From assembly GCA_002011035.2 (NCBI GenBank), contig MTLY02000001.1:32001-96000 (forward strand): a DNA stretch of 64,000 nt, read 5' to 3'. Source of the DNA: Candidatus Hecatella orcuttiae. Its GTDB lineage: Archaea; Thermoproteota; Bathyarchaeia; Hecatellales; Hecatellaceae. Positions 2,584 to 56,700 of the stretch are shown piece after piece (the stretch's first letter is position 1; every line of letters begins with the position of its first letter). The notes under the pieces were generated by a model. It ran no database searches. It was not told the origin of the DNA and worked only from the letters and a program-made list of their open reading frames with translations. A program made the position numbers and the translations under genes.

Positions 2584-4323
2584 GTGGTTCAATTTAAAGA
2601 ACTCTGCGAATTATGTGAGCGTTTAAGTCAAGTCTCCAGTAGAATTTCCAAGATAAACCTAGTAGTAGAATTTCTCAAAAGGGCAGACTTGGAGGAGATT
2701 TCTGCAGCCATTTCCCTTATCATGGGGAACCTCCCCAAAGCTTACGGGCAGCCTTTGAACCTCAGCCATTTGACTCTTTACCGCACTGTATTGAGGATGA
2801 CCAAGGTGGAGGAGGAGAAATTTTTCGGCGAATTTAGCCAAACAGGGGATGTAGGAGAAACTGTTAAGAGAATTCTCGAAAAATATCCATCTAAAACGCA
2901 AAAACTCCTCAAAGATGAGCCCATAACTTGCCGAGAAGTTGCTGAAGCCCTTCAGCAGATAGCGGAATTTACAGGAGCGGGCGCTCGGGTTAAGAAAGAA
3001 AGGCTGCTGGAAAGCCTCTTAGGCAGGGTAAGCCCGTTGGAAGCGAAATATTTGGTGAAGAATCTGCTGGGGGAAATGAGGCATGGATTCGGCGAAGGCC
3101 TCATGGAGGAAGCTTTAGCCAGAGCCTTCAATATCGGAGTTGAAAAGATCCGCATAGCCCACATGTCTATAGGGGACTTGGGGCGGCTGGGGAGACTGTT
3201 GAAATCCAAAGGACAGGCTGGTTTAGAGGCGGCGGTCATAGTTCCCTTTCATCCTGTAAAGCCTATGTTGGCCGAACATGCTGAAAGCTTAGAAGAAGTG
3301 CTTAGGCAGCACGGGGGAAAAACATGTTTAGAAGACAAGTTAGATGGGGTTAGAGTGCAGATTCATAAGGTAAACTCTGAAGTTCGCATTTACAGTCGAA
3401 GATTGACGGAGGTTACAGATTCTTTCCCAGAGGTCTCCAAGACGATAAAGGAGAAGGTGCAGGCAAAAGAAGCCATAATAGACGGGGAAATAGTAGCCGT
3501 GGATCATAGAGGCCGCTTTCAACCATTTCAAGAAATTATGAAAAGATACGGGCGAATTAAAGAGACCTATGACTTCGCTAAGCATGTCCCTGTCGCCCTC
3601 TTCTTATTCGATATTCTCCACCTAAACGGGATGCCTCTTATCGATAAACCCCTGATGGAAAGAAAAGCCATATTGGAGAAGATTGTTCCTTCGCGGATGC
3701 TTGTCCGCAGCCTAACCGCTGTAAGCCTCGACGAAGCTAGGAGATTTTTTGAAGAAGCCATAGGTAGAAGATGCGAAGGCGTTGTAGCCAAGCGTCCAGA
3801 TTCTACTTATACCCCGGGCATCCGCGGGAAAAAATGGCTGAAAATAAAGCGGCCTCCCTACACTTTAGATCTTGTAATTGTGGCGGCGGAGTACGGCTAT
3901 GGATATAGGCATAAGTGGCTTAGTGATTATTACCTGGCAGCAAGCGTTCAAGATGGTGAAAAGAAAGACTCACCCACAACCTTTCCAGAATACGTGGAAG
4001 CCTTCCATGGCGGCAAGTTTGAAATAGTTGGGAAAACTTTCAAGGGTTTGACTAACGAAGAAATCAAAACTCTCACCCAAAGGCTTCAAAACATAGCCCT
4101 CAAAACTGAAGGAAGGGCGGTCATAGTTAAGCCTGAAATAGTGGCGGAGATAGCCTTTTCGGAGATTCAGCGGAGTCCCCAGTACAGCAGCGGCTACGCC
4201 CTCAGATTCGCCAGAATCATCCGTATCAGAGACGATAAAACCGTAAGCGAGATCAGCAACCTGAAAGATGTTGAGCGAGTTTTCCTCACTCAGCATAGGG
4301 TCCAAGATTTTGGACGGGTATAG
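2584..4323 (+). CDS. lig: ATP-dependent DNA ligase
   Basis: Motif I EDKLDGVR, IIDGE, EGVVAK, WLKIK and ALRFAR..R.DK; archaeal N-terminal DNA-binding domain. Confidence 0.96.
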   Translation: MVQFKELCELCERLSQVSSRISKINLVVEFLKRADLEEISAAISLIMGNLPKAYGQPLNLSHLTLYRTVLRMTKVEEEKFFGEFSQTGDVGETVKRILEKYPSKTQKLLKDEPITCREVAEALQQIAEFTGAGARVKKERLLESLLGRVSPLEAKYLVKNLLGEMRHGFGEGLMEEALARAFNIGVEKIRIAHMSIGDLGRLGRLLKSKGQAGLEAAVIVPFHPVKPMLAEHAESLEEVLRQHGGKTCLEDKLDGVRVQIHKVNSEVRIYSRRLTEVTDSFPEVSKTIKEKVQAKEAIIDGEIVAVDHRGRFQPFQEIMKRYGRIKETYDFAKHVPVALFLFDILHLNGMPLIDKPLMERKAILEKIVPSRMLVRSLTAVSLDEARRFFEEAIGRRCEGVVAKRPDSTYTPGIRGKKWLKIKRPPYTLDLVIVAAEYGYGYRHKWLSDYYLAASVQDGEKKDSPTTFPEYVEAFHGGKFEIVGKTFKGLTNEEIKTLTQRLQNIALKTEGRAVIVKPEIVAEIAFSEIQRSPQYSSGYALRFARIIRIRDDKTVSEISNLKDVERVFLTQHRVQDFGRV

Positions 4324-23200: not shown

Positions 23201-23278
23201 TGGCGGGCCCGGGGGGATTTGAACCCCCGACCTACAACTTAGGAGGCTGCCGCGCTGTCCTGACTGCGCCACGGGCCC
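23201..23278 (-). tRNA. tRNA-Arg(CCT), intronless, CCA encoded
   Basis: GGGCCCG acceptor stem, GCAGC-CTCCTAA-GTTGT anticodon arm, GGTTCAAATCC T-arm, ends GCCA. Confidence 0.93.
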
Positions 23279-23371: not shown

Positions 23372-23508
23372 GCGGGGGTTCCCGAGCCGGGTCAAAGGGG
23401 CAGGGCCGCTCACCGCGGGGCCTAACTTAAGATCCCTCACCTCGGGTTAGCCTATGAGAAATCCTGTGGCGAAGGCTTTCGTGGGTTCAAATCCCACCCC
23501 CCGCACCA
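23372..23508 (+). tRNA. tRNA-Leu(TAA) with two introns (30/31: 23405-23424; 37/38: 23432-23460)
   Basis: Removing both introns gives GCGGGGG...CAGGA-CTTAAGA-TCCTG, a long variable arm, GGTTCAAATCC and ACCA; both junctions fold as relaxed BHB motifs. Confidence 0.87.
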
Positions 23509-52424: not shown

Positions 52425-52916
52425 TTGGTGGCAGAGATGCCAAGGATGAAAATCTCCTACCTCACCAAGGGATATGAAGGGGAAAAGAAATCTCTCGAAA
52501 TCTCAGCTGAACCGTACGAATTTATATTGACAACCCGAGGATGCTGGGAAAACGTCATCGCCGATGAGGATGTCTTCGTTCAGAAGGGGGAAATCAAGTC
52601 CATTAGAATTAAGCCCCTCCAGTTGAAACCTGAGGAAATCGTGATCTCATGCCCCATCATGCGAAACGCCCTAGGCTGCATCCTCTCCGTGGGAGGCGAA
52701 GGCCCGCCCAGAAGGGTGGAGAAACCGCGTAGGTTCACCTTCGCCCTCTTCGCCGCTTACAGGGAAGGAGAAATTCAGAAAAACGAACTGCTGGGAGTAG
52801 TCAACATTCTCTCCACCGCCGTCAGCATCAGCGCCCTAGCTAGAACGCTTCTGAACATAAGATACTTCGTCACACACTTTACGAAGCCGCCGCAAAAGCC
52901 GCGCGGCTCAACGTAA
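52425..52916 (+). CDS. DUF22-like archaeal protein
   Basis: VIADEDV....GE...I.I.P...RNALG...VE..R...GEI...ELLGV.N pattern. Confidence 0.65.
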   Translation: MVAEMPRMKISYLTKGYEGEKKSLEISAEPYEFILTTRGCWENVIADEDVFVQKGEIKSIRIKPLQLKPEEIVISCPIMRNALGCILSVGGEGPPRRVEKPRRFTFALFAAYREGEIQKNELLGVVNILSTAVSISALARTLLNIRYFVTHFTKPPQKPRGST

Positions 52917-53090
52917 CAGAAAAGAAACAGCCAAAACCTATCCACCGCCATCGGGCATGATGAAGATTTAATCAAAAGCCCCCATGAAGCAAAAGAATTC
53001 AGAAGCATCAGTGTAGCGACTTATGTTGGAGTTGGATGGAAAGTTTACTAAAATTGCGTATTAACATAATTTTCAAAACTGATAAACTTA

Positions 53091-53254
53091 TGGCGGGCCC
53101 GGAGGGATTTGAACCCTCGACCACTCCCCGAGGCGTCCGAGAAACAGGCCTCTACGGGTTTCACCCAGCGGCTAAGAGCTGCAGCCTGCCTAGGCAGTCC
53201 GCCGCTCCACCTTTTCAGGGCATTTCCTAGGAAGCCTGACTGAGCCACGGGCCC
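53091..53254 (-). tRNA. tRNA-Lys(CTT) with four introns (53213-53237, 53180-53198, 53160-53172, 53124-53153)
   Basis: Removing four BHB-bounded inserts (25, 19, 13 and 30 nt) from the 164-nt gene yields a canonical 77-nt cloverleaf ending GCCA. Confidence 0.85.
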
Positions 53255-53359
53255 TTCTAAAGTTAGAATGGCAACCCGTAAACTTTTAAGGTTTTTTCCC
53301 CAAGCTGCTGAAAACATTGCATACTCAAACAGCAGTTTGGCGGTCCTAGAACAGCCGTG

Positions 53360-54342: not shown

Positions 54343-56700
54343 TTGATTGAATGGAAAGTTTATCCGGCGAAAGGCGCGCAGGAATTTAAATGGATTGGAA
54401 AATCTATCCCTCGAAAAGAATCTTATGAGAAAGTTACAGGGGCTGCTAAATTTGTCGCTGACATGAAAGCTGACCTTTGCGCGAAAATCTTGAGGAGCCC
54501 CCATCCCCATGCGATAATAAAAAACATAGATACCAGTGAAGCTGAAAAGCTTCCCGGTGTAGCCGCCATAATCACCCACAAAGATGTACCAAAAAGGCTA
54601 CTCCCTCGAAGCAGCGCTAGAGCTTGCTACATTTTGGAGGATCATGTGCGTTACGTAGGCGATGAAGTGGCGGCGGTAGCGGCTGTAAGCGAGGAAGTGG
54701 CGGATGAAGCATTAGACCTGATAAAAGTTGAATACGAGGTCTTGCCCGCCGTGTTCGACCCGGAAGAAGCAGCTCGGGAAGACGCGCCGAAGTTGTATCC
54801 TGAAGGCAACGTCTACGGCCCTCTAGGCGGGACTATCGTGGAGAAGGGTATACGTGAACCTACAGTGCTTGAATGGGGAGACCTTGACAAAGGCTTTAAG
54901 GAAGCTGACGTAATAGTGGAAGATAAATTTGTGGTAAAACCGCAGATACACGCACCTTTAGAGCCTCATGTTTGTTTGGCTCAATGGGAAGGAGACCGGC
55001 TGACGCTCTGGGTCGCTACGCAGACGAAACATGAGATCATTGATAGCCTCTCCTACGTGTTCGAGATGCCGTCAAGCAAGATCAGAGTCATATCGAGGTA
55101 TGTAGGAGGAGGGTTTGGGTCAAAATACATCGAAAGATACATTCCCATTGCAGCCTTGCTGTCCAAAAAAGCAAAAGGTAAATCGGTAAAGCTGGTGTAC
55201 ACAAGGGAAGAGGAACAATGTCATACAAAGCGAGCAGGCCAGAAAATATACGTTAAGATCGGCGCCAAAAAGGACGGAACTTTCACTGCCATTCACTTCA
55301 AAACCTACTGCGATATCGGAGGCTACGGAAATTCTGTCAGTGGAAGTTGCCAATTTTGGGAAGAAGCGCCAGCTATTTCTTATAAAGCGGAAAATGCTCG
55401 ATTTGAAGCTTGGGATGTGCATGTGAACTATTTCAGCACCCAGCCGTTCCGTTCGGTGCAGGTGCCAAGTACAAATTTCGCTTTAGAGCAAGTCATCGAT
55501 CAGGTTGCTGAAAAACTTGGAAAAGACCCCGCGGAGATCAGGCTGAAAAACATGCCTGAAACGGGGGACGTTGTGCCTCCTAAACCCTACAAGAATCCCT
55601 TCTACCCCAGAGCCGCCTTGGATACCTATCCCTCCAAAAAAATGCTACAAGAAGTCTTGAAAGAGATAGGATGGAAAGAGAAGTGGAAAGGTTGGGGGAA
55701 ACCTGTAGCCGTAGAAGGATCGAAAAGGAGAGGAATAGGCCTAGCCTACTCGGCTGCTTGGGGAGGGTTTAACTACGATGGATTAATGACCATGACCGTC
55801 ACCATGTATCCGGACGGTTCGCTTACGATCCTTTCAGGCACCCAGGATCTAGGCACAGGTTCCAATACAACTTTGTGCATGATAGCCGCGGAACATCTTG
55901 GAATATCCTTGGAGGAGGTCAGCATAATCGCCGACGATACGGCTGTAGGGCAGTTTGACTACTATGAAGCCAGGTCAAGCCGGACGTTGACTATCGGGGG
56001 ACACATGCTCCTACTCGCCATCGAAGACGCGAAACGGAAGATTTGCGAGACAGTAGCCCCGAAACTTGAGGTGCCTCCGGAAAACTTAGAAGTCAAAGAG
56101 AAAAAAGTCTACGTTAAAAATGATCCTAAAAGAATGATTCCTCTCACAGAAGCCATCACTTCAACAGTGGTTGGCACTGCATCAGGTCCTCCGGGAAGCG
56201 AATTCCCTGAAATCGAGCCCGGGTTCAAATGGCGTAACCCTCTAGTTTCAGCGGCGGAAGTTGAAGTTGACGTTGAAACAGGAGAAGTTAAAATAGTAAA
56301 ACTGGTTCCCAGCTACTGCCCAGGGAGAATGGTAAATCCCAAGATTGTGATAGGGCAATATTTGGGAGGAGCATTATGTCAAGGGGTAGGTATGGCTCTC
56401 TACGAGAATTTCAACTTCGACGAAAAGAACAACGTCTATGTCAGCAGAAACTTCTTAGACTATAAAATCCCGCGAGCGACAGAAATGTACGAAGTAAAAC
56501 CTGTCATAATAGAGGAAGTCAAAGACCGGCCTCCACACGTAGGACCCCCCTACGGGGTGAGAGGTGTCGGAGAATGGGGAATAGGCGTCATTGTCCCTGT
56601 TATTGCCAATGCCATTTACAATGCTCTAGGCGTTAGGGTTAAACGCTGCCCGATGACAAGCGAGGTCGTTTTAGAGGCGCTGAGAGGGGGGAAAGAGTAG
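54343..56700 (+). CDS. Xanthine-dehydrogenase-family molybdopterin subunit
   Basis: LRSPHPHA, HAPLEP, GGGFGSK, DYKIP and GVGE (catalytic Glu). Confidence 0.9.
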   Translation: MIEWKVYPAKGAQEFKWIGKSIPRKESYEKVTGAAKFVADMKADLCAKILRSPHPHAIIKNIDTSEAEKLPGVAAIITHKDVPKRLLPRSSARACYILEDHVRYVGDEVAAVAAVSEEVADEALDLIKVEYEVLPAVFDPEEAAREDAPKLYPEGNVYGPLGGTIVEKGIREPTVLEWGDLDKGFKEADVIVEDKFVVKPQIHAPLEPHVCLAQWEGDRLTLWVATQTKHEIIDSLSYVFEMPSSKIRVISRYVGGGFGSKYIERYIPIAALLSKKAKGKSVKLVYTREEEQCHTKRAGQKIYVKIGAKKDGTFTAIHFKTYCDIGGYGNSVSGSCQFWEEAPAISYKAENARFEAWDVHVNYFSTQPFRSVQVPSTNFALEQVIDQVAEKLGKDPAEIRLKNMPETGDVVPPKPYKNPFYPRAALDTYPSKKMLQEVLKEIGWKEKWKGWGKPVAVEGSKRRGIGLAYSAAWGGFNYDGLMTMTVTMYPDGSLTILSGTQDLGTGSNTTLCMIAAEHLGISLEEVSIIADDTAVGQFDYYEARSSRTLTIGGHMLLLAIEDAKRKICETVAPKLEVPPENLEVKEKKVYVKNDPKRMIPLTEAITSTVVGTASGPPGSEFPEIEPGFKWRNPLVSAAEVEVDVETGEVKIVKLVPSYCPGRMVNPKIVIGQYLGGALCQGVGMALYENFNFDEKNNVYVSRNFLDYKIPRATEMYEVKPVIIEEVKDRPPHVGPPYGVRGVGEWGIGVIVPVIANAIYNALGVRVKRCPMTSEVVLEALRGGKE

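Follow-up and report, generated by a model that had tools for sequence, protein, structure and literature searches.

A tRNA-Lys(CUU) gene in the genome of Candidatus Hecatella orcuttiae, very probably divided into five exons by four bulge-helix-bulge introns

The window, by which we mean the whole 64,000-nucleotide stretch of DNA that was analyzed, belongs to the genome of Candidatus Hecatella orcuttiae (1.75 Mb, three contigs, 97% complete; G000 below). On its minus strand, at 53091..53254, lies what is with high probability a gene for tRNA-Lys(CUU) composed of five exons and four introns. The features of the locus, from the upstream side of the gene to its downstream side, are the following, where BHB stands for the bulge-helix-bulge motif and the positions are those of the tRNA.

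53283..53298, minus strand: candidate BRE/TATA promoter, an A-rich stretch and then TTAAAAG, some 30-40 nt ahead of the mature 5' end
53091..53254, minus strand: whole tRNA-Lys(CUU) gene, from the Rfam RF00005 match and the BHB-constrained cloverleaf search
53238..53254, minus strand: exon 1, 17 nt (gene nt 1-17); 5' strand of the acceptor stem, positions 8-9, 5' strand of the D-stem and first 4 D-loop bases
53213..53237, minus strand: intron 1, 25 nt (gene nt 18-42); D-loop, 17/17a, strict BHB
53199..53212, minus strand: exon 2, 14 nt (gene nt 43-56); remainder of the D-loop, 3' strand of the D-stem, position 26 and anticodon-stem bases 27-30
53180..53198, minus strand: intron 2, 19 nt (gene nt 57-75); 30/31, strict BHB
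53173..53179, minus strand: exon 3, 7 nt (gene nt 76-82); position 31 and anticodon-loop bases 32-37, including the anticodon CTT
53160..53172, minus strand: intron 3, 13 nt (gene nt 83-95); canonical 37/38, relaxed BHB
53154..53159, minus strand: exon 4, 6 nt (gene nt 96-101); position 38 and 3' strand of the anticodon stem, 39-43
53124..53153, minus strand: intron 4, 30 nt (gene nt 102-131); 43/44, relaxed BHB
53091..53123, minus strand: exon 5, 33 nt (gene nt 132-164); variable loop, T-arm, 3' strand of the acceptor stem, discriminator G and CCA
53091..53093, minus strand: encoded 3' CCA, part of the tRNA-Lys(CUU) gene
53074..53090, minus strand: T-rich 3' trailer, putative termination signal

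The gene is flanked by protein genes for a DUF22 protein (52425..52916, plus strand) and for a large subunit of the molybdopterin-binding aldehyde/xanthine-oxidoreductase type (54343..56700, plus strand), and no link between the tRNA gene and these two neighbors was seen. The upstream box is likely an archaeal BRE/TATA promoter; A/T-rich TATA-like boxes stand at a comparable distance in all nine of the orthologue loci examined for it. The T-rich trailer is likewise a likely termination signal.

An earlier note, made from the letters of the window, had read this stretch as a tRNA-Lys(CTT) gene interrupted at 17/17a, 30/31, 37/38 and 43/44, and the minus-strand sequence that it wrote out for 53091..53254 is exact. 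The gene family is recovered independently of that note by Rfam, since 53094..53254 on the minus strand matches RF00005 along the full model (positions 1-71 of 71) with 33.9 bits, where the gathering score is 29, and with three large insert blocks in the alignment. The same Rfam search returned no match at threshold to group I or group II introns or to any other RNA family over the stretch. The four introns (25, 19, 13 and 30 nt) account for 87 of the 164 nt of the gene, so that the earlier statement that more than half of it is intron and that two exons are only 7 and 6 nt long is borne out by the count. Once they are removed, the predicted product is a 74-nt cloverleaf plus the encoded CCA, the normal 77-nt tRNA that had been expected, with stems of 7, 4, 5 and 5 bp in which all 21 pairs are formed, U8, G18G19, U33, a purine at position 37, the T-loop TTCAAAT and, as read from the sequence, a D-loop of 9 nt and a variable loop of 5 nt.

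The junctions were sought with a cloverleaf dynamic program that allows jumps at BHB-like sites alone, these being defined by at least three of four central pairs and at least two flanking pairs. This search gave the same four junctions as the earlier note and the anticodon CTT, with a score of 51.0; because the BHB is built into the tool, its counts lean towards the BHB. When the interior was shuffled 150 times, no shuffled sequence scored as high as 51.0 (mean 41.9, sd 2.5, maximum 48.75). We regard this control on its own as moderate evidence, because the search is permissive and because a version of it free of the BHB constraint preferred a spurious three-intron parse, and we give more weight to the orthologues described below. 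A recursive removal of BHB introns, which visited 26,510 nodes, recovered introns 1-3 and the anticodon CTT in six of the eight best solutions listed; its score is blind to the length of the variable loop and it left the stretch from exon 4 to exon 5 ambiguous. The suspicion that standard annotation could miss the gene holds for ARAGORN, whose default mode reports Arg(cct) at 23201-23278 as the sole tRNA of the window and leaves the tRNA-Lys(CUU) stretch uncalled, and whose intron mode reads that stretch as Ser(aga) with a single 70-nt intron. DNA contigs of the runs X1, X3, X5 and X6, two of which are possibly the source of the assembly, contain the gene without a difference or a joint, and no intron-less allele was seen in the contigs of these four runs.

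The motifs were examined with a fixed geometry, that is, a central helix of four pairs, bulges of three bases and a cut after the second base of each bulge. Intron 1 has the central helix TCAG/CTGA with 4/4 pairs, the bulges TCA and AAA, an intron helix of 3 bp and an exon-side helix of 1 bp. The central helix of intron 2, CGGC/GCTG, also forms 4/4 pairs, one of them G-U, with the bulges GGA and CAG and with flanking helices of 4 bp on both sides. The other two motifs are imperfect. Intron 3 has 3/4 central pairs in CTCT/GGTG (an internal U.U), 3-nt bulges, an intron helix of 1 bp and an exon-side helix of 1 bp, which reaches 7 bp in the absence of the other introns; the anticodon stem serves as this outer helix and becomes continuous only when intron 2 has gone. 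Intron 4 has 3/4 central pairs in ACCC/GGGG (a terminal A.G), 3-nt bulges, an intron helix of 5 bp and no exon-side helix. The division into two strict and two relaxed motifs made by the earlier note is thus the one found here. The predicted fold of the whole precursor is not unusual in stability (z = -1.34), and the BHB of intron 2 is the only one of the four to appear in its minimum-free-energy and centroid folds.

The weight of the argument lies with the orthologues, which were gathered in two ways, by searching the DNA of 60 relatives and by scanning 185,579 species genomes with a sequence pattern. The scan pattern required the 30/31 intron, so that the sample consists of genes with that intron; it contains Lys(CUU) genes at 82 places, equal to 69 distinct sequences, and the loci come mostly from Candidatus Bathyarchaeota / Bathyarchaeia. 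Among these 69 sequences, 47 have one intron, 6 have two, 13 have three and 3 have four, numbers that are approximate, as five loci (L002, L044, L051, L056 and L104) were mis-solved by the constrained search and were judged by spliced alignment and by reading the sequence. Two members of the same family but of other genera (G001 and G003) have intervening sequences at all four places. Three further members of the family (G005, G009 and G006) have the D-loop and 30/31 introns together with an intron in the T-loop and are without those at 37/38 and 43/44; in them exons 3-5 are contiguous and equal to the predicted spliced sequence. At the loci L005, L007 and L009, which lack introns 3 and 4, exon 4 runs directly into exon 5 and the variable loop has 5 nt. 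Intron 1 is missing in the orthologue L004, whose D-loop is uninterrupted; G050, from another family, lacks the D-loop intron and has an uninterrupted D-loop of 9 nt, the same length as in the spliced product. In each of these stretches the spliced sequence is seen directly, and these genes, each lacking one or more of the introns, agree with the identity, anticodon, junctions and exon sizes that the earlier note had proposed.

Comparison of the three genes with four interruptions points in the same direction. Exon identity across G000, G001 and G003 is 72/74, 69/74 and 70/74; exons 2 (14/14), 3 (7/7) and 4 (6/6) are fully identical in all three, and exon 1 has 16-17 of its 17 bases identical in G001 and G003. 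The introns are identical at 63/96, 59/100 and 62/100 positions, with changes in length, and their internal helices are preserved by different sequences. At the 30/31 junction, seven of the eight exon-side and central pairs are kept in all 63 of 63 distinct Bathyarchaeia orthologues and the eighth in 56 of 63, with the reservation that these junctions were called with a BHB filter and that the central-helix counts lean towards the BHB accordingly. In the intron helix of the same 63 sequences, several pair types occur at positions 3 and 4, and they covary. Another Bathyarchaeia MAG (L055) has two three-intron Lys(CUU) copies on one contig, at 1438-1595 and 3777-3934, 2.3 kb apart; the copies differ from each other, and 66 and 62 of their 74 exon bases match the Hecatella gene.

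A search of the whole genome for tRNAs identified 47 genes that cover all 44 anticodons sought, with a weak parse for Arg(TCT). The anticodon TTT is represented by one gene, with three introns, and CTT by exactly one gene, so that the proposed check for another Lys(CTT) gene ended with the present locus as the only one found in this 97%-complete genome. In the CCA-anchored genome scan, 1538 of 1589 candidates were processed, and the relaxed second pass gave no match among the candidates processed. The codon AAG makes up 8423 of the 268304 codons in 569 long ORFs. The 47 genes have 63 predicted introns, about 1.3 per gene, and 32 of the 47 are interrupted: 15 genes are without introns, and one, two, three and four introns are present in 12, 11, 7 and 2 genes, respectively. 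Among the sites occupied across the genome are 7/8, 8/9, the D-loop, 30/31, 43-46 and the T-loop. When 61 introns from the genome were compared all against all by BLAST, no match had E < 0.01, and we find no evidence of recent intron transposition among them.

The second gene with four introns encodes tRNA-Tyr(GUA) and lies outside the window.

G000:C3:228347-228548, minus strand (locus L141:98-299, minus strand): tRNA-Tyr(GUA) gene, 202 nt, with introns of 31, 45, 32 and 20 nt at 30/31, 37/38, 53/54 and 59/60

All four of its predicted introns are strict, with 4/4 central pairs. Its orthologues in G005, G006, G007 and G011 have the 37/38 intron alone and are uninterrupted at the other junctions; these intron-poor genes confirm the predicted four-intron structure at the level of sequence. 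Two other tRNA candidates came to light in the same survey. A tRNA-Leu(UAA) is predicted at 23372..23505 of the window (plus strand), with two anticodon-arm introns of 20 and 29 nt and a score of 49.75; it adjoins the tRNA-Arg(CCU) at 23201..23278 (minus strand) and is missed both by ARAGORN in default mode and by the Rfam search at the gathering score. A candidate 71-nt tRNA-Pyl(cta) was reported by ARAGORN at G000:C1:349861-349931 (plus strand), where there is also a T-arm with the loop TTCGACT.

An intron just after the anticodon stem is present in four tRNAs of the genome, namely Lys(CTT), Lys(TTT) and two CAT genes.

G000:C1:85094-85254, C3:675973-676123, C1:357093-357240 and C1:170690-170833: tRNAs with an intron just after the anticodon stem

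The central helix called for this intron begins with an A38.G mismatch in all four. Three of the four introns end in GGGGA plus a purine, and in three of the four there is a strict register one base inward that gives a 7-nt variable loop.

The genome contains genes for the enzymes that such a precursor would require. Two EndA paralogs are encoded, at G000:C2:15570-16124 (plus strand) and C2:374733-375302 (minus strand), and in both of them Pfam recognizes the N-terminal as well as the catalytic domain. The best match of the 184-aa paralog is the Aeropyrum pernix catalytic chain 3p1z_B (E = 1.2e-46), and its Tyr, His and Lys are aligned; the His aligns with the residue replaced by Ala in the mutant entry 3ajv_B. 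This paralog also has a Lys in the stretch aligned to the A. pernix loop, which we take to be the Crenarchaea-specific loop. The 189-aa paralog has Pro where Methanocaldococcus jannaschii has its catalytic His. Together, the two sequences look like the catalytic and the structural subunit of a heteromeric enzyme. Two types of EndA, the heterotetramer and the three-unit type of ARMAN archaea, have been reported to accept relaxed motifs at non-canonical positions, and the earlier idea that splicing here needs an EndA of broad specificity fits this gene content of one catalytic and one non-catalytic paralog. An RtcB RNA ligase is encoded at G000:C3:330994-332304 (PF01139, 589.8 bits).

What was observed is the sequence with its motifs and cloverleaf, the series of orthologues and the genes for the enzymes; from these we infer splicing and its order as follows. 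Transcription from the gene's own BRE/TATA promoter would give a precursor of about 165 nt, EndA would cut the four introns at their BHB motifs, and RtcB would ligate the five exons (17, 14, 7, 6 and 33 nt), giving a standard tRNA of 74 nt plus CCA. The earlier note had also pointed out that the BHB helices use the bases of the D and anticodon stems, and mapping of the motifs bears this out. The central helix of intron 1 uses the D-stem bases 12-13, and that of intron 2 uses positions 25 and 26 and the anticodon-stem bases 27-28, while in the exon-side helix of intron 2 D-arm bases are paired with the anticodon-loop bases 32-35. These same bases, 32-35, are used by the central helix of intron 3, and the central helix of intron 4 takes up bases 38-41, the ones that serve as the 3' strand in the outer helix of intron 3. 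Because of the shared bases, the BHBs of introns 2 and 3 and those of introns 3 and 4 are mutually exclusive, and all of them compete with the cloverleaf. Most likely, introns 1, 2 and 4 would be the first to leave, in any sequence among themselves, since each contains an internal helix of its own; the canonical 37/38 intron would follow at the end, since its outer helix is the anticodon stem and this has to be restored beforehand. An order of splicing or refolding of this kind is plausible for the tRNA-Lys(CUU) precursor.

The junctions of intron 4 are uncertain by one base on each side. Moving both cuts one base inward (53125..53152) turns the relaxed motif into a strict one, with 4/4 pairs in CCCG/CGGG, an intron helix of 4 bp and one exon-side pair, and leaves two extra bases in the tRNA and a variable loop of 7 nt. 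By our reading of the sequences, this strict register is also present in intron 4 of G001 and G003 and is available in the 43/44-type introns of Lys(TTT) and of one CAT gene, and the number of G-C pairs is equal in both registers. We nevertheless prefer the register of the earlier note, for three reasons. The sister genera without intron 4 have a 5-nt variable loop identical to that of its spliced product. The two extra bases would be AG, TC or AA depending on the genus, in a tRNA that is otherwise 93-97% identical. Finally, the 44/45 introns of other families, in a strict register, are cut just after the intron-final bases GGGAG, which is where the preferred register also places the cut. Class I tRNAs normally have variable loops of 4-5 nt, and this too counts against a loop of 7 nt. 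The same four-intron gene with intron 4 cut in the strict register is therefore a doubtful reading, to which we give a small probability. That the gene is instead a decaying pseudogene, or one with fewer or different introns, is very improbable. The Rfam score is a mere 4.9 bits above the threshold, and a different structure is favored by two other parses, the Ser(aga) of ARAGORN and the three-intron GAA parse of the BHB-free cloverleaf search (score 43.75), but neither has BHB motifs at its junctions or matches an orthologue, and we rejected them. Exons of 6, 7 and 14 nt that are 100% conserved over three genera, between introns that have diverged, are at odds with decay, as is the conservation of the promoter-like box; moreover, no other Lys(CTT) gene was found in the genome, and the remaining anticodons, including Phe(GAA) and four Ser anticodons, are covered elsewhere. 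Least credible of all is that one or more of the introns leave by a route other than EndA or are kept in the mature RNA. The imperfect motifs of introns 3 and 4 would allow it, and cleavage of all four by EndA is a prediction, but all four introns fit the BHB geometry at the junctions required by the cloverleaf and the orthologues, genes for the EndA subunits and RtcB are present, and at threshold the stretch has no match among group I introns, group II introns or other RNA families. We therefore retain the tRNA-Lys(CUU) gene with four BHB introns, the last one at 43/44.

A bolder proposal, which we consider unlikely, combines two elements: a new rule for the splice site and an independent burst of intron gain up to four per gene. 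Under that rule, either cutting would follow the strict register in Lys(CUU) of G000, G001 and G003, in Lys(UUU) and in one CAU gene, or EndA would routinely use a helix closed by A38.G. If the first option were true, these Bathyarchaeia would have class I tRNAs with a 7-nt variable loop and two bases that vary with the lineage; either option would amount, in this family, to a rule for the splice site that has not been described in archaeal tRNA introns, and it would come on top of an independent burst of gain that has reached four introns per gene and exons of 6-7 nt.

Under the preferred reading, the locus does not represent a new mechanism; what is notable is the lineage, the exons of 6 and 7 nt and the orthologue series. 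Taken together, the Lys(CUU) orthologues are a natural series in which related genera have between one and four introns, distributed over five positions, so that the arrival and the sliding of BHB introns can be tested by comparison. Exons this short, together with mutually exclusive BHBs, make a demanding substrate for the question of how EndA and the refolding of the RNA order multiple cuts. As the gene is missed or mis-called by ARAGORN, annotations of such organisms will seem to lack essential tRNAs, and Bathyarchaeia are an abundant lineage of sediments.

The closest known systems are the multi-intron tRNA genes of the Thermoproteales, described in Pyrobaculum, Thermofilum and Caldivirga (PMC4033280, PMC8450103). 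The present genome shares with them BHB introns at canonical and non-canonical positions, neighboring introns so close that one must leave before the motif of the next can form, and a heteromeric EndA of broad specificity, which in our case is predicted from its genes. The intron load is also comparable, with 63 introns in 47 genes here and 71 in 46 in P. calidifontis, so that a family of Bathyarchaeia comes close to the classic extreme of the Thermoproteales. The differences are the lineage, here Bathyarchaeia, and the two genes with four introns, against a maximum of three in the Thermoproteales, and the lack of any sign, in the BLAST of 61 introns, of the intron transposition that has been described for that order. 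The earlier note had given three as the highest number of introns in the archaeal tRNAs known to it. This agrees with Fujishima and Kanai (2014, PMC4033280), who give three as the maximum per archaeal tRNA gene, and with the tRNAscan-SE 2.0 paper (2021, PMC8450103), which states up to three; it does not agree with a computational census of Asgard archaea, a bioRxiv preprint from October 2026, which reports up to five in one tRNA gene. More than three introns per archaeal tRNA gene are thus already in print. Apart from this report, the open-access literature that we searched yielded no archaeal tRNA with four introns and no paper on tRNA introns in Bathyarchaeota or Bathyarchaeia, and in that literature the Bathyarchaeia case is new. 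The Asgard genomes resemble ours in their many non-canonical introns, often in the D-arm, that are missed by annotators, and the preprint describes introns preferentially at BHB sites and repeated, lineage-specific gains. Asgard archaea are, unlike Hecatella, members of a different phylum, and Bathyarchaeia has 0 occurrences in the text of the preprint available to us. For the order of splicing, the best parallel is the nuclear tRNA-Ile(UAU) of Cyanidioschyzon merolae (PMC3728597), which is eukaryotic and has three experimentally verified introns (D-arm, 37/38 and T-arm). RT-PCR showed that its outer introns are removed before the one at 37/38 (PMC3728597), and this is the same order that we propose for the precursor of tRNA-Lys(CUU).
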